61,096 bases of DNA from an uncultured Candidatus Saccharibacteria bacterium (GTDB lineage Bacteria > Patescibacteriota > Minisyncoccia > Phycocordibacterales > UBA9973), in assembly GCA_964482735.1 (NCBI GenBank), contig CAYZYV010000003.1:1-61096 (forward strand), given 5' to 3'. The notes under the pieces were generated by a model. That model saw only the letters and a program-made list of their open reading frames with translations, did no database searches and was not told the origin of the DNA. Below, piece by piece: positions 1,123-36,386 of this stretch. The translations under genes and the position numbers were made by a program. The first letter of the stretch is position 1, and the number at the start of each line of letters is the position of its first letter.

Positions 1123-1905
1123 ATGAGGACAAAAAGCCATGAAAATTATAGAGAATTGGTGATGCGACTTGCCAAGACAGATTTCAAACTCCGATATCAT
1201 GGAAGCACTTTGGGTTACCTTTGGGCTATCCTTCGTCCTCTTTTAATGTTCACTATCTTAAACTTTGTCTTCTCCTCTATTTTTAATTTTAGGAATTCTG
1301 GTACACCGAATTATCCACTTGAACTTCTAACTGGTCTTTTAATGTTTCAATTCTTCTCAGAGGGGACAGTGAATGGCATGAACGCCTTGTTGGTAAAATC
1401 ACAATTAGTAACAAAGATATACATTCCGAGGTGGACGATTATACTTGGATCTTCGGTCAACGCTCTGTTTATTTATGGTATGAATTTGATCGTCTTATCA
1501 GTTTTCTTTATTGTTTATGGCATTACTCCTTCTATCCCTGCTATTCTAATGTTCTTTTTCTTGTCTCTATTGCTATATATTCTAATTATTGCCTTTTCAT
1601 TTTTGACAGCTCCTCTTTTGGTTCGTTTTAGGGATTTGTCAATGATCTGGGAGGTTTTGTTGCAGATTTTAATGTACGCTTCGCCAATTATTTATCCACT
1701 TGCGATGATGCCGGAATACATTCAGAAAATTATGCTTTTCAATCCGCTTGCTTTTATCATCCATTTCTCAAAGAGGGGGTTGATCGAAAATTATTTTACA
1801 AACTTTTCAAATGTCTTATATTTAATTATTGGGGTGATTGGAATTTTTGCAATTTCATTATTAGTTTATAAAAAAACCGAACGTCGAGTCGCTGAGAATA
1901 TATAA
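1123..1905 (+). CDS. wzm: ABC-2 polysaccharide export permease (Wzm-like)
   Basis: DFKLRYHGSTLGYLWAILRPLL, FRDL, YASPIIYP and NPLA motifs; about 6 TM segments. Confidence 0.9.
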   Translation: MRTKSHENYRELVMRLAKTDFKLRYHGSTLGYLWAILRPLLMFTILNFVFSSIFNFRNSGTPNYPLELLTGLLMFQFFSEGTVNGMNALLVKSQLVTKIYIPRWTIILGSSVNALFIYGMNLIVLSVFFIVYGITPSIPAILMFFFLSLLLYILIIAFSFLTAPLLVRFRDLSMIWEVLLQILMYASPIIYPLAMMPEYIQKIMLFNPLAFIIHFSKRGLIENYFTNFSNVLYLIIGVIGIFAISLLVYKKTERRVAENI

Positions 1906-2675: not shown

Positions 2676-4010
2676 ATGAAAATAGAAGGATTACCGGAAG
2701 CAACAAAAGATTTACAAGTTGGAAATACTGGATTTTTGAAAAGATTATTTTTTTTATTATACAAAGGTTTTTGTGTTCTTAAAAAAGAAGGGCTGTTAAT
2801 TTTTCTGAAAAAAACTACAATGTTTTTAGCGAGAAACTGTAATCGCAGAATATTTAATCCTGTTTTTTTGTTTTTTTATAAAAAGAAAATTATTTTAAAA
2901 TCGCAGCAAAAAATAAAAGACTTTATAAAAAATAAAAATTTTTTAATGTTTGCTCCTTGGGTTGTTCTTGGTGGGGCAGACAAACTGATAATTGAATATA
3001 TTAGAGCAGCAAGAAATGAGTTTAAAATTGGGCTAATAACAACAATTAAACCAGGGGATAGAGTAAGCATGGTAGATTCTCCTTTTTTTGACTTGAATTC
3101 AAGTATTAAAGGATGGAATTATTTATCCGAAGATGAACAGTGTGATATTATCGTAGACGCGATAATAAATTCTAGTGTAAAAATAATCCATATAGTTAAT
3201 TCAGAATTAGCAATAAAAATGGTTTTATCAAAAAAGAAAGCCCTAGATAAAAATAACATAAAAATAGTAACCTCTCTTTTTGCCCTTGGGTATGATAAAA
3301 GTGTTGAAAAATTTTCCGGGTATCCATTAATGTATCCTAATATCATGATTGATTCAAATTTAATTTTAAGTGACAATAAATATTGGTTTTCTATATTCAG
3401 AGAAATAATAGGTATGGAATTTAATTACAAAAAAATACATTCTCCAGTTAAAAAGCATAATATTAACAAAAAAAGTTTAATTATTAAGAAAAAGATTCTT
3501 TGGGCTTCAAGAATTTGTGATACTAAATTTATAGATTTACTATATAAGATTTGTCAATCAGAAGAACAAATCACCTTTGTGATCTATGGCAATATAGGAG
3601 ATGATCGTGATGCTAATATGTTTTTTGATAAGATTGTAAAACTAAAAAACATAGAATATCGTGGTGCCTTTAATGATTTTTTGCAAGTAGATCCAACAGA
3701 ATTTGATATTTTTTTATATACTTCCTATATAGATGGATTACCTAACATAGTATTAGAAATTTCAACTATGGGTATTCCCATAATATCCTCAAAAATTTGT
3801 GGAGTTTCGGAAGTTTTAGGGAACAGTAATCTCTTAGTAGAAAATATAGAAGATTTTAATGAGTATATAAAGAAGATTAATGTTTTTTATAATAACCCTA
3901 TGCAATTTTATAAAGATGCTAGTAAAATTAGATATAAGGTTCAAGAAACTCATTCAGAAGAAAATTTTAAAAAGGAATATCTAGAAGCTATTAATTTGTT
4001 GTTAAGTTAG
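2676..4010 (+). CDS. Glycosyltransferase family 4 (GT-B)
   Basis: C-terminal FLYTSYIDGLPNIVLEISTMGIPIISS resembles the GT4 E-x7-E-type motif; GGADK N-terminal motif. Confidence 0.8.
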   Translation: MKIEGLPEATKDLQVGNTGFLKRLFFLLYKGFCVLKKEGLLIFLKKTTMFLARNCNRRIFNPVFLFFYKKKIILKSQQKIKDFIKNKNFLMFAPWVVLGGADKLIIEYIRAARNEFKIGLITTIKPGDRVSMVDSPFFDLNSSIKGWNYLSEDEQCDIIVDAIINSSVKIIHIVNSELAIKMVLSKKKALDKNNIKIVTSLFALGYDKSVEKFSGYPLMYPNIMIDSNLILSDNKYWFSIFREIIGMEFNYKKIHSPVKKHNINKKSLIIKKKILWASRICDTKFIDLLYKICQSEEQITFVIYGNIGDDRDANMFFDKIVKLKNIEYRGAFNDFLQVDPTEFDIFLYTSYIDGLPNIVLEISTMGIPIISSKICGVSEVLGNSNLLVENIEDFNEYIKKINVFYNNPMQFYKDASKIRYKVQETHSEENFKKEYLEAINLLLS

Positions 4011-4810
4011 TGGTAAATAAATATATGGATTTAAAAAAAATAAGTATAATTATCCCAACTTTTAACCAAGAAGCATACTTGTCCCAGACTTTGCTATCTG
4101 TAAAAAAACAAAATTATAATAATTGGGAGTGTATAATAGTTGATGATGGTTCAACTGATAGTACAAAAAAGATAGTAGAAAAATTTATAACCGAAGATTC
4201 CCGTTTTACTTATTACTACCAGCAGAATCAAGGTCCATCTGCGGCTAGAAACTATGGAATTTCAAAAAGTAACGGAGAGTATATATTACCTTTAGATTCA
4301 GATGACTTGATTTCTGCTAATTATATTAAGGATGCAATAGGTGTTCTAGAAAAGAATCCACGAGTAAAGTTGGTCTATTGTGATGCTGTCTTTTTTGGAG
4401 AAAAGACAGGGTCTTGGTTGTTGCCAGCTTATTCTTATAAGAAGATGCTTTTGGAGAATGTTATTTTTTGTTCTGCTGTTTATCGAAAGTCTGATTACCT
4501 TAAAACAAAGGGGTATGATAATACCATGAGAAGTGGACTAGAAGATTGGGATTTCTGGTTGTCAATCTTAAAGAAAGAAGATTCTGTTTTTAAAATATCA
4601 GAAACCCATTTTTTTTATAGAATAAGAAAAATGTCAAGAAATTTTATTATAAATTCAAATTTTATAATATTATTTTGGCTAAGGCTAAAAATTTATTCAA
4701 AACACTTTCGTTTATATGATTTTACTTCTACATTACTATACTTCTTAAAAACTTTTTATTTTGTAGCTTGTTCTATTAAATCTAATTTAACTAAAGAGTC
4801 CAAAGGATAA
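4010..4810 (+). CDS. Glycosyltransferase family 2
   Basis: ISIIIPTFN, IVDDGSTD, PLDSDD and EDWDFW motifs. Confidence 0.92.
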   Translation: MVNKYMDLKKISIIIPTFNQEAYLSQTLLSVKKQNYNNWECIIVDDGSTDSTKKIVEKFITEDSRFTYYYQQNQGPSAARNYGISKSNGEYILPLDSDDLISANYIKDAIGVLEKNPRVKLVYCDAVFFGEKTGSWLLPAYSYKKMLLENVIFCSAVYRKSDYLKTKGYDNTMRSGLEDWDFWLSILKKEDSVFKISETHFFYRIRKMSRNFIINSNFIILFWLRLKIYSKHFRLYDFTSTLLYFLKTFYFVACSIKSNLTKESKG

Positions 4811-4906
4811 CAACAAAAATAAAGTCCCTTCTTTCTATTTAAAAATAAGATTATTGAGAAAAACTATCGGTAAATACAATAAAACAAATGTATTTCGTGT
4901 GTTCTC

Positions 4907-5732: not shown

Positions 5733-6035
5733 ATGAAAAATAATGAATCTTTAAGATTGACATTGCTGAGTATGGCATTTCCATTGATCGCTATAATTAT
5801 CATCGTTTTGGTAACGTTAATACCTGAACAAGAAGAAGGCTGGTATGTAGGGCAGAGGGCTGACGGAATCCACATGGTGCAGATGGATAATGGGAAAAAT
5901 GCTGAGGCAATGATGAAGGACGAGGTCAAAGCCAGATTAAATCGGGAAAAGAAGTCCCGTTTTAATACCATAAGGGTAATTATGGAGAGAGATTCCAACG
6001 GGAATCTTGTTATCATTGATAGCGAAGTTAAATAA
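5733..6035 (+). CDS. Hypothetical single-TM protein
   Basis: 100-aa ORF with an N-terminal hydrophobic helix, its own promoter, and a downstream hairpin at 6055-6082. Confidence 0.6.
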   Translation: MKNNESLRLTLLSMAFPLIAIIIIVLVTLIPEQEEGWYVGQRADGIHMVQMDNGKNAEAMMKDEVKARLNREKKSRFNTIRVIMERDSNGNLVIIDSEVK

Positions 6036-6125
6036 TTCCCTAGTACAAAAATTAACAACCGCAAAGCATAGCTTTGCGGTTGATTTTATTTAATCTTGCT
6101 CACTACTTTAAAATGTCTGCTATAT

Positions 6126-6194
6126 ATTGGTGTCGTGTTTGCTTCCTTCTATTCGTGTCATTCGTTTTCATTCGTGGATTGGTGTCGTGTTTGA
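6126..6194 (+). repeat. Dispersed ~50-bp repeat family, array A
   Basis: ATTCGTGTCATTCG-N4-CATTCGTGGATTGGTGTCGTGTTTGA; the same unit recurs at 15.7, 18.1 and 19.3 kb. Confidence 0.9.
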
Positions 6195-6199
6195 TCCCC

Positions 6200-6256
6200 T
6201 TAGTGTTTAAAAATTATTTGTACCGTGCGAACAAAAATTCCGAAATCCATGAAAAT
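6200..6256 (+). repeat. 57-bp direct repeat duplicating the 3' end of the sugar transferase gene
   Basis: Identical to 7922-7978 except one synonymous change; the minus strand of both encodes IFMDFGIFVRTVQIIFKH*. Confidence 0.92.
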
Positions 6257-6258
6257 TA

Positions 6259-6327
6259 TAATCGTATCATTTAGTTGCTTTAATCGTATCATTATGATAC
6301 GATTAAAAGATAAAAATGATACGATTA
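6259..6327. promoter_or_regulatory. Symmetric four-site operator-like array over the Fic gene start
   Basis: TAATCGTATCAT at 6259 and 6281 (+); its reverse complement at 6294 and 6316 (-). 22-bp spacing; the last site includes the ATG. Confidence 0.75.
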
Positions 6328-7368
6328 AATAATAGACAAATTAATATTTTAGAAAAAATTACCTTAGGGGGAGAAGTTTCTTCCTCAGATGTTTTTAGTT
6401 ACCTAAACGAAAGGGTTTCATTAATTACCGTAAAACGTGATTTAGATTATTTGACAACGTTAAAATATTTAGAACGTAAAGGAAAAGGAAGATCAACTTT
6501 TTACCTAAAAACAATTTTGGGAACTTTATTCACCCCGATAAATGCGGAAGAGTATAACAAGGTAGATCCGGATAAGAGATCTGGTGATGATAGTTTTAAT
6601 TTTAAATTGTTTGAAAATTTCCCTAGAAGTTTATTTTTTGATGAAGAGAAAAAAGTTCTTGATACTGCAACTAAAAATTATAGTAAAAAGATAAAGAAAA
6701 TATCAAATGTAATAAAGTCAAAGGAGTTAGAAAGATTTGTTATTGAGCTTTCTTGGAAATCATCAAAGATAGAAGGTAATACTTATACGTTGTTAGATAC
6801 AGAAAAATTAATAAAAGAGGGAATTCCTTCTAATAAAAATACAAAAGAAGAAACAACAATGATTCTAAACCACAAAAAAGCTTTTTCCTTTGTTTTAAAG
6901 AATGTGAACCTTTTGTCTAAGAAAGGAATCAATTCTTCTTTTGTTGAAAAAGTCCACGAGATTTTAATAGATGGGCTAGGGGTAAAAAAAGGTGTTCGTA
7001 ATGGGTTGGTAGGCATAACAGGAACTAAATATAAACCCCTTGATAATAAATACCAAATCAATGAAGCTTTAGAGGAACTCTATAAAACAGTAAATAAAAT
7101 AGACGATGTATATAGTAGGGCACTAAGTTTGCTTGTTGGTATTTCTTATATACAACCATTTGAAGATGGGAATAAAAGAGCGGCACGCCTATTATCAAAT
7201 GCAATTCTTCTTGCATACAATTGTGCACCTTTGTCGTATCGAAGTGTTGATGAAGAAAAATATAGGGAATCAATCCTTGTTTTCTATGAAAAAAATTCTA
7301 TTATGCCAATGAAAAATATTTTTCTAAATCAATATCTGTTTTCTACTGAAAATTATCTTGTTAAATAA
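6316..7368 (+). CDS. Fic-family protein with N-terminal winged HTH
   Basis: N-terminal SLITVKRDLDYL...GKGRSTFY wHTH; SSKIEGN; Fic-like motif QPFEDGNKRAAR. Confidence 0.88.
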   Translation: MIRLNNRQINILEKITLGGEVSSSDVFSYLNERVSLITVKRDLDYLTTLKYLERKGKGRSTFYLKTILGTLFTPINAEEYNKVDPDKRSGDDSFNFKLFENFPRSLFFDEEKKVLDTATKNYSKKIKKISNVIKSKELERFVIELSWKSSKIEGNTYTLLDTEKLIKEGIPSNKNTKEETTMILNHKKAFSFVLKNVNLLSKKGINSSFVEKVHEILIDGLGVKKGVRNGLVGITGTKYKPLDNKYQINEALEELYKTVNKIDDVYSRALSLLVGISYIQPFEDGNKRAARLLSNAILLAYNCAPLSYRSVDEEKYRESILVFYEKNSIMPMKNIFLNQYLFSTENYLVK

Positions 7369-7452
7369 TTAGTAGTGTTGAACAGTATTGAGTTGATCGA
7401 CAAAAGAATTTTTAAGGAAAGTGCATCTTTAATTATTTTAACTATTAGAATT

Positions 7453-7827
7453 ATGAAAAATGGAAAAGGATTAAGTCAAAGTTTTTTATACACATTAGTT
7501 TATGTAATAATAGGAATATTTGTTGGGATTTTAGAATCTGCTTTTTTGACGGTATCAGTGCTTCCACTATTGTTTTTAATGTTGATGCACTATGCTTATG
7601 AAGATAAGAGTAATTTTTGGGAAAATAATTTGGGCGTCATTTTCTTGGCGGTATGCTTCGTTGTCTCAGCCGTAACAATTTCATTTCTTGGAATTCATGG
7701 TTATAAAAATGGTAAGAGATACGATAAGAGCCAGACAAACAAGAAAAAGTGGCTTATCATTGCCCTTATAGTAGAAGTTTTAATTTTAATACCAGCGCTG
7801 TACTTCTTTGTCGGAATAATTTCATAA
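7453..7827 (+). CDS. Hypothetical membrane protein (about 4 TM)
   Basis: Hydrophobic ORF; ATG at 7453 preferred over the GTG at 7375. Confidence 0.6.
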   Translation: MKNGKGLSQSFLYTLVYVIIGIFVGILESAFLTVSVLPLLFLMLMHYAYEDKSNFWENNLGVIFLAVCFVVSAVTISFLGIHGYKNGKRYDKSQTNKKKWLIIALIVEVLILIPALYFFVGIIS

Positions 7828-7921
7828 TTTTTGGGTGTTTTAAAATAGCTTTTAGCTTTTACTCATTTTTCTGGTAGTAATGACGGTCCTTTTTATAGTG
7901 TTTGCATCGTGTTTGAAACCT

Positions 7922-9211
7922 TTAGTGTTTAAAAATTATTTGTACCGTACGAACAAAAATTCCGAAATCCATGAAAATGTTTCTATTTTTAATATAATAC
8001 AAATCATATTCAAATTTTTCTTTTGATGATAAAACTGAATTAGCATATCGGTATTTTATTTGTGCCCAGCCGGTAAAACCAGGTTTAATAATCTGACGAA
8101 TTCTGTAGTGGGGGATTTCTTTGATAAGGGCACTGACGAATTCAGGCCTCTCTGGCCTAGGACCAAATAGAGCTAATTCGCCCTTAATTATGTTTATCAT
8201 TTGAGGAATTTCATCTATATGAAGTTTACGAATAACTTTTCCTACTTTTGTTATGCGATTATCATTTTCTGTCGTCCAACGTGCACCGTTTTCTTCTGCA
8301 TTTACTCTCATTGATCTCAACTTAATTATATTAAACTCCTTATCGTCTAGCCCAACTCTTTTTTGAGTATAAAATACTGGGCCTTTATCTTCAATGAAAA
8401 TAAACATAGCTATGATGAGAATAACAGGGGAGAGAATTATCAAACCAATTACAGCAAATAAGATTTCTACCAATCTAGAAATAATTTTATAAACAAGATC
8501 TCTTTTGCCATTAATATTTTCAATAATCCAAGATTCGGAAACATAATCAACTGGAATCCTGAACAAATACTTTTCATAAGCCTCTGAAATATCAAGGATG
8601 TCATTTTTATTCTTGCGAATGTCGTTTAGTAACAAAGAATTGAGATTCTCGGTGTTTGTATCAATAACAAAAACAGCTTTTTTGATGTCTTTCCATTTCA
8701 ATAGAGACTCCTCTAGATTTGAAGAATAGTGAATTATTTTTAAACCAATTTGTGGGTTTTCTGAAATAGTCTTATTTAAATTATCGAGATATTGATGATC
8801 CCCGATTAAAATAGCAGGTCTAGTTATTTGATAAGCAGAAATAGAATAAAAAGATCTACGAATCAAGAATGAGATGATACTAAATCCGAGTGCTTGAAAT
8901 AACAGGTTTGCTTTAGGAGAAATTCCAAAAGATGGAATTAGATAAAACATAAAGATACCAAAAACAAAAGAGACCATGATAGCAAGTCCGAACTGTCTAA
9001 GGTGAGGAATGGTCGGTTTTATTTTGTATATATCGTATAGATCAAAGAGATAAAAAATCAAAGCCCAAACGATATAAAGAATCATAAAAGGACCAAAATG
9101 TTTAATTATGATATCGTGATTTGTTTCGCCATATCTGACATAAAGGATGGTTAAAAGGGTTAGCCAAAAAGCCACAAAGTCTCCAGCGATAATAAAACCA
9201 ATTCTTTTCAT
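7922..9211 (-). CDS. Polyprenyl-phosphate sugar phosphotransferase (WcaJ/WbaP-like priming glycosyltransferase)
   Basis: 4-5 N-terminal TM segments; KLRSM, RITKVGKVIRKLHIDEIPQ, GPRPERP and KPGFTGWAQ motifs. Start reassigned to MKRIGF at 9211. Confidence 0.92.
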   Translation of the reverse strand: MKRIGFIIAGDFVAFWLTLLTILYVRYGETNHDIIIKHFGPFMILYIVWALIFYLFDLYDIYKIKPTIPHLRQFGLAIMVSFVFGIFMFYLIPSFGISPKANLLFQALGFSIISFLIRRSFYSISAYQITRPAILIGDHQYLDNLNKTISENPQIGLKIIHYSSNLEESLLKWKDIKKAVFVIDTNTENLNSLLLNDIRKNKNDILDISEAYEKYLFRIPVDYVSESWIIENINGKRDLVYKIISRLVEILFAVIGLIILSPVILIIAMFIFIEDKGPVFYTQKRVGLDDKEFNIIKLRSMRVNAEENGARWTTENDNRITKVGKVIRKLHIDEIPQMINIIKGELALFGPRPERPEFVSALIKEIPHYRIRQIIKPGFTGWAQIKYRYANSVLSSKEKFEYDLYYIKNRNIFMDFGIFVRTVQIIFKH

Positions 9212-9262
9212 ATATAACAATATATTACCCCAATCCAACAAGAAATCAAACACGACACAAAT

Positions 9263-19274: not shown

Positions 19275-19294
19275 TCAAATCCTAATTTGTTCCT

Positions 19295-19440
19295 ATTCGT
19301 GTCATTCGCTTTCATTCGTGCATTTGTGTCGTGTTTGATTTCTCCCATTCGTGTCATTCGTCCCCATTCGTGTATTTGTGTCGCGTTTGAAACCTATTCG
19401 TGTCATTCGCCCCCATTCGTGTATTTGTGTCGCGTTTGTC
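19295..19440 (+). repeat. Dispersed ~50-bp repeat family, array D (3 units)
   Basis: Units at 19295, 19347 and 19396 (periods 52 and 49 bp). Confidence 0.92.
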
Positions 19441-19564
19441 CTCTTTACTTATCCACACCCCATAAATAGCCATATATATTTGCATATTTATTTACGCGAG
19501 TATATAATATATGCATATATTATCGTTGCTGGTAATTATTTATCGAATATGGTAATATATGATA

Positions 19565-22161: not shown

Positions 22162-22213
22162 ACAGCCGAGGTCGGACCTAGTACGAGGTCCGACCTCGGC
22201 TGTTATCCACAGG
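22162..22213. repeat. REP/REPIN-like palindrome copy 1 plus TTATCCACA box
   Basis: ACAGCCGAGGTCGGACCT-AGTACG-AGGTCCGACCTCGGCTGT (18-bp arms), followed by TATCCACAGG. Confidence 0.9.
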
Positions 22214-22332
22214 TTAAATAAAAGCCTTATTCCATTGCTTTTATTGACAAACACCTTGACTTATTGTTATATAAAATGATATAATATAAGTATAAGAGTT
22301 CTTTTTGTTAAACCTTTTAATCACATCTTGTT

Positions 22333-22792: not shown

Positions 22793-22843
22793 ACAGCCGA
22801 GGTCGGACCTCGTACTAGGTCCGACCTCGGCTGTTATCCACAG
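22793..22843. repeat. REP/REPIN-like palindrome copy 2 plus TTATCCACA box
   Basis: Same 18-bp arms with the loop inverted (CGTACT). Confidence 0.9.
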
Positions 22844-22894
22844 ATTTTTAAAATATTACACCACATTTGAATAGCCATGTGTTATAATCAAAAC

Positions 22895-23566
22895 ATGACA
22901 ACTAGAAAAGTCTCTTTTGCACCGGGAGAGTTTTATCACGTATATAATCGCGGTAATGACAAGCGAGAGATTTTTCATGACCAACAAGATTATTCTTATT
23001 TCTTAAAAACCTTAAATATTTTTAATACTAAGATGAGTCTGCGCCTTCGATATGTGTCGAAGGATTTTTTTATTTGCAACAATAATCCCGGACTTGTCTC
23101 CATCGGTTGCTATTGCTTAATGCCTAATCATTTTCATCTTTTAATCACACAAACAGAAGATGGAGATATTTCAAAATTCATGCAGAAAGTCATGACTTCC
23201 TATGTGATGTATTATAATCAAAAATACAAAAGAACAGGGTCTTTGTTTGAAGGTAAGTTTAAATCAAAACATATTGGTGATGATAGGTATTTTAAATATT
23301 TATTTTCCTATGTGCACTTAAACCCAATAAAATTAATAGAACCTAAATGGAAAACAGAAGGAATTAAGAATCAAGAAAAAGCCTTAGAATTTTTGGAAAA
23401 ATATGAATACTCTAGTTATGGGAAATATGCAAAAGGAAAAGATAAATATAACATACTCAATACATCTGTTTTCCCAGAATATTTTCCAACGAAAGAATTA
23501 TTTAAAAAAGATATCTTTGATTGGTTAACCTATGGTGATGAATGCTTAGCTGACGAAGGAGGATAA
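22895..23566 (+). CDS. REP-associated tyrosine transposase (RAYT, Y1/HUH family)
   Basis: YHVYNRGNDKREIF, YCLMPNHFHLL (HUH), LFEGKFKS, Y.HLNP and YEYSSY motifs; flanked by REP palindromes. Confidence 0.92.
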   Translation: MTTRKVSFAPGEFYHVYNRGNDKREIFHDQQDYSYFLKTLNIFNTKMSLRLRYVSKDFFICNNNPGLVSIGCYCLMPNHFHLLITQTEDGDISKFMQKVMTSYVMYYNQKYKRTGSLFEGKFKSKHIGDDRYFKYLFSYVHLNPIKLIEPKWKTEGIKNQEKALEFLEKYEYSSYGKYAKGKDKYNILNTSVFPEYFPTKELFKKDIFDWLTYGDECLADEGG

Positions 23567-23577
23567 AAGCAAGGCAA

Positions 23578-23633
23578 GACCTAGTACGAGGTCGGACCTC
23601 GTACTAGGTCCGACCTCGGCTGTTATCCACAGG
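23578..23633. repeat. REP/REPIN-like palindrome copy 3 plus TTATCCACA box
   Basis: GACCTAGTACGAGG-TCGGA-CCTCGTACTAGGTC overlaps the standard hairpin, giving two alternative folds. Confidence 0.88.
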
Positions 23634-23710
23634 TTTAATTATGGTTGGAGTAAGATTAGATTTAAAAGTATAATGAAAATGTTGGAATTACAAGTATTTA
23701 TAATAAATAT

Positions 23711-36345: not shown

Positions 36346-36386
36346 AACCAAACAAAAATCCGCCAGTGGCGGATTTTTGTTTGGTT
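36346..36386 (+). terminator. rRNA unit terminator
   Basis: AACCAAACAAAAATCCGCC-AGT-GGCGGATTTTTGTTTGGTT. Confidence 0.88.

Follow-up and report, generated by a model that had tools for sequence, protein, structure and literature searches.

The window analyzed here comprises 61,096 nt (positions 1 to 61,096 of contig CAYZYV010000003.1, assembly GCA_964482735.1) from an uncultured Candidatus Saccharibacteria bacterium, and the element in question is a 1.65-kb cassette inserted at the 3′ end of a gene for a polyprenyl-phosphate glycosyl-phosphotransferase (PGT). The cassette (6257-7906) contains open reading frames (ORFs) for a Fic-family protein and a membrane protein only, both on the strand opposite to PGT and neither of them encoding a recombinase. 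It is bracketed by two 72-nt direct repeats, referred to below as attL-like (left) and attR-like (right), which a repeat search returned as a single two-copy family with 68 of 72 positions identical and a spacing of 1722 nt. Near the locus this pair is the sole long direct repeat in the 61-kb window that does not belong to a larger repeat family, and a 20-nt piece of it matches at these two places only, with a chance expectation of 0.02. Minus-strand translation of 6200-6256 and of 7922-7978 yields IFMDFGIFVRTVQIIFKH* in both cases, which corresponds to the C-terminus of PGT. The sole mismatch in this coding part is synonymous (CGC at 6227 versus CGT at 7949), and the remaining three fall in a 15-nt non-coding tail (6195, 6196 and 6199 versus 7917, 7918 and 7921). 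In this tail, TCGTGTTTGA, a 52-nt tandem-repeat family (ATTCGTGTCATTCGC...CCATTCGTGnATTTGTGTCGTGTTTG) comes to its end; the family is found in intergenic DNA at four places in the window, namely immediately left of the insertion and at 15663-15824, 18134-18243 and 19293-19451. With repeats at both ends, one of which completes the target gene by restoring the PGT end, the layout resembles that of a site-specific integrative island. Repeat search and translation thus agree with the initial annotation, which had reported that the last 57 bp of a WcaJ-like gene recur with a single synonymous change, that the match runs about 15 bp further into a repeat-unit tail (6185 / 7907), and that the 1,722-bp period encloses two genes on the opposite strand.

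Table 1. Features of the cassette and its borders in window coordinates
Feature	Coordinates	Strand	Remarks
About two units of the 52-nt tandem-repeat family	6097-6198	plus	Host DNA left of the insertion; last 14 nt enter the left repeat
Left direct repeat (attL-like)	6185-6256	minus	Displaced, non-functional PGT 3′ end; 6200-6256 = last 18 codons and stop, 6185-6199 = 15-nt tail
Nested palindrome, four TAATCGTATCAT 12-mers (two forward, two inverted)	6259-6327	plus	Starts two bases past the left junction and reaches across the Fic start codon
Fic-fold protein, 350 aa	6316-7368	plus	PF02661, E = 3.5e-11; N-terminal winged helix-turn-helix (wHTH)
Small multi-pass membrane protein, ORFan	7375-7827	plus	Listed ORF of 150 aa from GTG
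Non-coding right end of cassette	7828-7906		No inverted repeat matching the left end
Right direct repeat (attR-like)	7907-7978	minus	15-nt tail with the functional last 18 PGT codons and stop
PGT (Bac_transf, WcaJ/WbaP-like)	7922-9211	minus	Conserved; adjoins a variable glycan locus

Comparison with related loci defines the setting of this insertion. The PGT ORF (7922-9274, minus strand) matches PF02397 (Bac_transf) with an E value of 3.5e-62, and its relatives among species-representative genomes are confined to Patescibacteria, in metagenome-assembled genomes labelled Nomurabacteria, Paceibacterota or 'Saccharibacteria'; exact protein matches to the region are found in a 16-kb wastewater metagenome contig. 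The nearest of these relatives lies in a locus designated L014 (72% PGT identity). Synteny with L014 covers RecA (13972-15042 in the window), EF-P, Wzy and PGT on one side and two genes on the other (window 1123-1905 and 1919-2674, the latter with a homologue in another locus, L011, that carries an ABC-transporter ATPase domain), and the 6 kb between these blocks is wholly different from the window. This combination of synteny with a replaced 6 kb therefore places the PGT 3′ end at the point where a conserved block gives way to a glycan-synthesis locus that is replaceable. Between species, the best-conserved nucleotide stretch of PGT is its last 120 nt. At the opposite end of the gene the ORF is open back to 9274, its first 21 codons consist of 52-nt repeat-family sequence, and relatives begin at Met 9211. 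Since an inverted piece of the repeat family (9240-9282) overlaps the listed 5′ end, a start at 9274 is probably wrong, and Met 9211 is the probable true start. The same 12-mer occurs at the same place in L014.

Two relatives lack the cassette. L014 contains neither Fic nor a duplication of the PGT end, and in L063, where the PGT end shows 94% amino acid identity, glycan genes for a methyltransferase and an acetyltransferase come immediately after the stop codon. Public contigs of the same species from other samples do carry the cassette at the same place, and the divergence of the cassette and its flanks is sharply different in these strains. Specifically, strain contig L003 differs from the window at 1 of 1650 cassette positions, as compared with 43 of 1296 in PGT (3.3%) and 46 of 561 in the left flank (8.2%); the contrast between cassette and PGT has a Fisher p value of 8e-15. 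The block that is identical in L003 extends over 6243-7909, so that both of its ends lie inside the repeats. L004 shows no difference over the 1650 cassette positions and 88 over 546 in the left flank (16%), its PGT side not being covered, and in X9 there is none over 1749 positions between flanks that are each 5-6% divergent. All sequencing runs examined were represented by contigs assembled at k = 31, in which rare variants are dropped and a 57-nt repeat is not resolvable. Because strain-specific bases are found 4-15 nt from the cassette ends at this k, the identical cassette is genuinely linked to the diverged flanks and does not reflect an assembly chimera. Consistent with this pattern, runs from wastewater, sludge, landfill and freshwater that contain only 0.56-0.80 of the k-mers of the 4.5-kb region contain 0.98-1.00 of those of the cassette, and two groundwater runs contain 83-86% of the cassette k-mers. 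An ancestral gene diverging together with its surroundings could not produce a near-identical cassette between diverged flanks. Taken together, these observations establish the cassette as an insertion at the PGT 3′ end, and as judged from the sequence comparisons it looks recently mobile between strains. The earlier view of a minimal island that lacks an integrase, sits in a glycan-biosynthesis gene, restores that gene and displaces its old end is therefore largely right, as both the relatives and the strain divergence bear out.

With respect to cargo, the Fic protein scores 44.2 bits against PF02661 (cutoff 24), which identifies a Fic domain. Its active site reads QPFEDGNKR, with Gln in place of the catalytic His of the canonical motif HxFx(D/E)GNGRxxR. 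This is a family trait, as 112 of 120 homologues contain QPF-x-DGNKR, with the exact QPFEDGNKR in 105 of these; the motif in this subfamily also includes a Doc-like Lys. The auto-inhibitory helix motif (S/T)xxxE(G/N) is present as well, as SSKIEGN in the window protein and in 97 of the 120 homologues. Conservation of the Gln across the family indicates that the change from His is functional, and because the replacement runs throughout the family, canonical AMPylation is unlikely: these proteins probably have a Fic fold without being canonical AMP-transferases. The window protein matches the PADLOC models SoFic and PDC-S04 (E = 8e-17 and 1e-18, respectively), and the cassette cargo is probably defense-type or toxin-like.

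The nested palindrome at the Fic start is a second conserved feature of this family. It folds far better than shuffled sequences (z = -8.4), its TAATCGTATCAT 12-mer has 5 matches where 0.39 are expected, and it is retained upstream of every examined homologue of the window Fic family, with protein identities down to 67-71%. A related repeat, ATACGATTA, lies upstream of the Fic gene in L011, whose product has a C-terminal wHTH. We consider the palindrome a putative operator for the N-terminal winged-helix domain, through which Fic would probably repress its own promoter. As for the membrane protein, one relative (44% identity, 127 aa) was found among 1.84 billion representative proteins, and it is uninformative. 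Its alignment begins at residue 31, for which reason the ATG at 7453 is probably the real start of the gene. Metatranscriptome contigs cover parts of both cassette genes and the junction between attL and the operator, with DNA carry-over a possible source.

A displaced PGT end was also found beside other cargo in several species of the Candidate Phyla Radiation (CPR). In L011, whose PGT is 58% identical to that of the window, the intact gene is followed by a SoFic-type Fic gene on the opposite strand and then by a 282-nt copy of the PGT end with 84% identity, the differences being mostly synonymous as read from the translations. A 198-nt copy (88% identity) in L074 brackets a gene for an NYN nuclease, and a homologue of the window Fic (71% identity) lies just outside that duplication. 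The most elaborate case is L041, in which PGT is followed by a HicAB-like pair, a first PGT-end copy (71 nt, 87% identity), a RhuM-Doc gene with a SoFic-type Fic gene, a second copy, a segment with AbiE genes, and the rest of the second copy. The HicA/HicB-like designation derives from the translations, and no family scan supports it. The second copy stops at ...NIFIDF, where it is split by a 2.9-kb segment encoding AbiEi/AbiEii, and its remaining 16 codons resume beyond that segment, the two borders of which have about 10 nt, TTTAT(T)GATTT, in common. In PADLOC, the L011 and L041 Fic genes next to the PGT end match SoFic with E values of 1e-44 and 1e-45, and the cargo at all of these scars is consistently of defense or toxin-antitoxin (TA) type. 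The 5′ boundaries of the duplications fall at PGT codons -18, -21, about -62/-66 and -93 across events. On the basis of these sequence arrangements, we suggest that the PGT 3′ end is a recurrent capture site. One element of the initial annotation did not carry over to these species, namely the use of the repeat family as part of an att site: outside the window species, homology stops 3-8 nt past the stop codon.

Between its cassettes, L041 also contains perfect palindromes resembling repetitive extragenic palindromes (REP-like; ACCCACGAGGCAAGGCCTCGTGGGT) at 2651-2688, 3897-3934, 4066-4103 and 4869-4906, one of which replaced part of a displaced PGT fragment. Short PGT 'fragments' retrieved from the protein database with the last 109 aa as query were considered as further displaced ends and set aside, the three cases examined on long contigs being a frameshift, a decayed locus and a truncation at a contig end.

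Homologues of the window Fic at 50-78% identity are abundant in the CPR and occur in unrelated contexts in other genomes, in some cases beside duplications of quite different sequence. In L076 a Fic unit (69% identical) lies between Wzy and, downstream, an unknown gene of 219 aa, whose 5′ end is present twice, as 83-nt copies with 86% identity on either side of the unit (5800-5882 / 7053-7135). The 5′-end duplication of L076 mirrors the 3′-end duplication of the window. In L078-L083, Fic is one unit of a TA/defense array (HEPN-MNT, ParE, a 126-aa ORF and Fic; 2496-6191 in L078), and each unit of the L078 array is followed by the same 30-79-nt module, GTCGAATAAAGAATTGAATC with a terminator hairpin, in 5 copies. 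The layout of this array is integron-like, and no integrase was found within 5 kb of it. No repeat was found beside the Fic homologue in L072 or L084. Since L076 and L078-L083 duplicate other local sequences, what recurs is the long duplication of adjoining sequence as such, and not one specific att site.

Returning to the window species, one contig from the European Nucleotide Archive (L006, 1715 nt) reads 7507..7906, a single repeat, and then 6257..7499. It is a circular permutation of the 1722-nt unit that falls 7 nt short of closing, and it may represent an excised circle, a tandem copy, or an assembler walk round a collapsed-repeat loop. Contig break points in X2, X5, X9 and X11 (for example, 6228..7978 in X2 and a 1723-nt contig in X11) were considered as circle junctions and not counted as such, since at k = 31 a strain with identical 57-nt repeats gives the same graph. 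The repeats themselves differ among strains. At repeat offset 42, attL is G and attR is A in the window, as opposed to A and G, respectively, in L003; the attR of L004 carries that strain's own attL-type tail; and the window, L003, L004 and L006 show reassortment of the alleles at offsets 10-14, 39, 42 and 57, a pattern that is drawn from populations and not from observed events. A further rearrangement is seen in X2, in which a loose end at window 7985 marks a PGT allele that matches the window up to ...YYIKN and then continues into a very divergent homologous end (RSIMLDASII...). This allele is a chimeric PGT with its breakpoint about 6 nt from the repeat boundary.

Searches for a dedicated mobilization function were negative. 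No integrase was found in the cassette, among the 40 window ORFs or around L011, L041, L074 and L076, and neither those 40 ORFs nor the PGT neighborhoods of the other loci contain an intI/attI platform. Viral contigs yielded no PGT-end attP and no Fic relatives. The 72-nt repeat folds no better than shuffled sequences on either strand (z of 0.3 to 0.9), which gives no sign of an attC-like structure. No inverted repeat joins the cassette ends, and the duplication, at 72 nt, is not short, in disagreement with an insertion sequence, a transposon or a miniature inverted-repeat transposable element. Compared by eye with the E. coli dif consensus, the repeat shows a weak match, and we make no claim of a dif/Xer-type site. 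The sole recombinase-like gene in the window is a Y1_Tnp gene (22877-23566, 35.7 bits) of the IS200 or REP-associated tyrosine transposase (RAYT) type, flanked by a REP/RAYT-like 54-nt perfect-hairpin repeat at 22162-22215, 22793-22846 and 23582-23635. This transposase was rejected as the mobilizer, its hairpin being absent at the cassette ends. A similar Y1 gene and REP-like palindromes are also seen near the Fic locus of L074.

In terms of mechanism, we prefer a host-driven process acting on the repeats, of the kind documented for the E. coli H47 island, to an integrase that works in trans on a fixed core, and would give the former about an even chance of being correct. The two repeats would recombine by host functions, either RecA-type or RecA-independent repeat recombination, and the cassette, together with one repeat, would be released as a circle. 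Once taken up by a related cell, this circle would re-enter through a single, Campbell-type crossover with the conserved PGT 3′ end, which would recreate the duplication and mix the repeat alleles. Repeated entry at the same anchor would build arrays separated by PGT-end copies, as in L041. Our preference derives from the negative searches for an integrase, terminal inverted repeats and an attC-like fold, from the variable length of the duplications (18 to 93 codons) and from the shuffling of repeat alleles between strains, and the last 120 nt of PGT, being best conserved and at the edge of a variable region, would offer a natural homology anchor. Several observations weigh against host-driven recombination. 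Repeats of 72 nt at 94% or 83 nt at 86% identity are short and imperfect for efficient RecA recombination, and the origin of the first repeat-flanked cassette is not accounted for. Neither an excised circle nor an empty site was directly observed, and no 1722-nt skip appeared in the 12 runs compared with the region, a weak negative given that all are k = 31 contigs; L006 could be a graph-loop artefact if the repeats of that strain show identity over k or more bases. Considered by itself, L003 is consistent with one fixed crossover at offsets 58-71. Lastly, four breakpoints (the window boundary, L041 copy 1, the ~10-nt overlap at the L041 AbiE insert and the X2 chimeric allele) cluster at PGT codons -16 to -21, near the IFxDF codons, which would suit a site-specific enzyme. 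In a more far-reaching proposal, which we regard as rather unlikely, the CPR would possess an integron-like but integrase-independent platform: the last 60-280 nt of PGT, or elsewhere a sequence such as the terminator unit, would act as a reusable recombination site. A dedicated mechanism, be it a trans recombinase or a specialized repeat-recombination pathway, would capture defense and TA cassettes there, stack them, and exchange them among strains and across species.

The clustered breakpoints would also be explained by a cargo-only, satellite-like cis-mobilizable element (CIME), on which a tyrosine or serine recombinase encoded elsewhere acts near ATTTTCATGGATTT (PGT codons -18 to -14). The layout is the classical 3′-end-restoring one, the attR of L003 is the same as the L006 junction at offsets 4-71, which is the outcome predicted for an element that takes offsets 0-57 along, and serial accretion of the kind seen in L041 is typical of site-specific integration, for example in tycheposon arrays (10.1101/2020.12.28.424599). 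We nonetheless consider this explanation unlikely, if still a live rival, and the att-site reading of the initial annotation, with mobilization in trans, is not supported in the form of a classical fixed-core site. The ORFs and neighborhoods searched held no such enzyme, the viral contigs held no matching attP or Fic relative, the 5′ boundaries range from -18 to -93 codons, and Fic-family cassettes are associated with long duplications of unrelated targets. Moreover, in the portion of attR that the element would carry, the window and L003 disagree at 3 of 58 positions, against 1 of 1650 in the cassette, and the shuffled alleles fit no single crossover: for any position chosen, the supposed element-derived part of the repeats differs between the two at 2-3 sites in <70 nt. 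If the duplication were instead an old scar without a role, the cassette could spread by DNA uptake and double crossover in the host flanks, with no circle, much like the 'minimal mobile elements' of Neisseria. A position between a conserved gene and a glycan locus that is replaced wholesale among relatives, the presence of the cassette at the same site in all observed strains, and an identical tract in X9 that may reach 48-93 nt past the repeats are all compatible with such a sweep. It is improbable given that the identical tract ends 14 nt and 3 nt from the cassette ends in L003 and within ~100 nt in L004 and X9, even though ~1.3 kb of 94-97% identical PGT had been available for crossovers; in addition, the left flank, at 8-16% divergence, is a poor arm, and the permuted contig L006 and the reciprocal swap of repeat alleles are left unexplained. 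Fic/Doc genes are common cargo beside island att sites and displaced gene ends are typical island scars, as would befit the remnant of a larger prophage or island like an integrative and conjugative element (ICE), once equipped with its own integrase and since reduced to the Fic module. We hold this to be very improbable, since the same minimal size recurs in every strain and sample with no longer variant, several species carry different small cargo and no integrase fragments, no relative was found in viral contigs, and the near absence of divergence suggests that the small unit itself moved recently. Scarcely credible is the absence of any insertion, with an ancestral Fic gene and a local tandem duplication followed by deletions that left a stray PGT end. 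The near identity of the two repeat copies and the occurrence of the cassette in all sampled strains of the species are in its favor, but it would require two deletions with exact end points, Fic homologues elsewhere stand in unrelated contexts, and the closest relatives outside the species have no Fic at this position, which is not what an ancestral Fic with local duplication would predict. The contrast between 0-1 differences in the cassette and 3-16% in the flanks largely refutes it.

Set beside known systems, the finding is a variant of repeat-flanked, recombinase-less islands and defense hotspots. CIMEs possess the defined att core of a known ICE integrase, together with att-like flanks and no integration genes; the cassette shares the att-like repeats, the lack of integration genes and the proposed provision of functions in trans, and differs in that neither a helper nor a fixed core was found. 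The recombinase-less E. coli H47 island (microcin H47) excises and integrates via imperfect direct repeats at several crossover segments, giving hybrid att sites from several identity segments in a reaction carried out by host functions, and its excision has been demonstrated experimentally to be RecA-independent (PMC3191183, PMC5426353). The cassette likewise has extended imperfect direct repeats and no recombinase gene. However, H47 measures 13 kb and resides in E. coli, whereas the cassette measures 1.65 kb in an uncultured CPR bacterium, has repeats that are the 3′ end of a protein gene in need of restoration, and is inferred to be mobile from population data alone. In the tycheposons of Prochlorococcus, repeated insertion at the 3′ end of one gene displaces earlier elements inward, with partial gene copies left behind (10.1101/2020.12.28.424599). 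Adaptive or defense cargo in a streamlined genome and partial gene copies as scars are common to both, but tycheposons insert at tRNA genes and encode replication functions as well as recombinases of the tyrosine or serine type, whereas the CPR cassettes have neither and use the end of a protein gene. Arrays of small TA/defense cassettes without recombinases, separated by a repeated recombination sequence, are reminiscent of integrons and of clusters of attC sites lacking integron integrases (CALINs). In contrast to those, the CPR repeat has no attC fold and is a piece of a host gene, no IntI was seen, and promoters and operators belong to the individual cassettes, which do not all point the same way. 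Islands of the SGI1/MGI type (at trmE and yicC) also supply a replacement gene end and leave the displaced copy at the far junction, but they are 10-100 kb in size, encode an integrase and use one fixed crossover site. Integrases specific for dusA act at the 5′ end of their gene (PMC4482086). The window Fic, a candidate defense protein by model match, differs from SoFic/PDC-S04 in that its family has Gln for the catalytic His and the wHTH is N-terminal, not C-terminal.

To our knowledge, which does not draw on a literature survey, few mobile elements have been described in the CPR/Patescibacteria, whose genomes are tiny, and little is known of their gene exchange. Should recombination between duplicated gene ends suffice to move such cassettes, it would constitute a cheap route to a flexible defense repertoire in streamlined genomes, and the displaced gene end would provide a simple sequence signature for finding them in metagenomes. 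The finding also draws attention to a large conserved Fic subfamily that lacks the catalytic His and has its own palindromic putative operator.

The neighborhood of PGT contains a further small gene of interest. An 84-aa GIY-YIG gene (~9279-9533, minus strand) lies between Wzy and PGT, 1.3 kb from the cassette junction, and is absent at that position in L014. It is flanked by 22-nt inverted repeats with 95% complementarity (9261-9282 / 9558-9579), and the flanking pair is found again at 18220-18240 and 18340-18360. In five runs, there are contigs that connect 9282-9283 with 9554-9558, and the gene may be a small mobile unit. As a driver of the cassette it was rejected, being absent from L014, not seen beside PGT in L011, and ~1.6 kb from PGT in L074.

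Elsewhere in the window, which contains no 16S gene, the match to the large-subunit (LSU) rRNA model spans 3561 nt (32321-35881) as compared with a model length of 2925 nt. Two Rfam tRNA hits (35073-35149 and 35160-35234) fall inside this span, one of which ARAGORN confirms as tRNA-Glu, and the arrangement is suggestive of an insertion, or of an intervening sequence, in the 23S gene. The 5S rRNA gene (36136-36243) is accompanied by two partial duplications: its 3′ part is repeated over 69 nt at 97% identity, 92 nt further downstream (36187-36255 / 36279-36347), and the region at its 5′ end over 46 nt at 87% identity (35950-35995 / 36119-36164).

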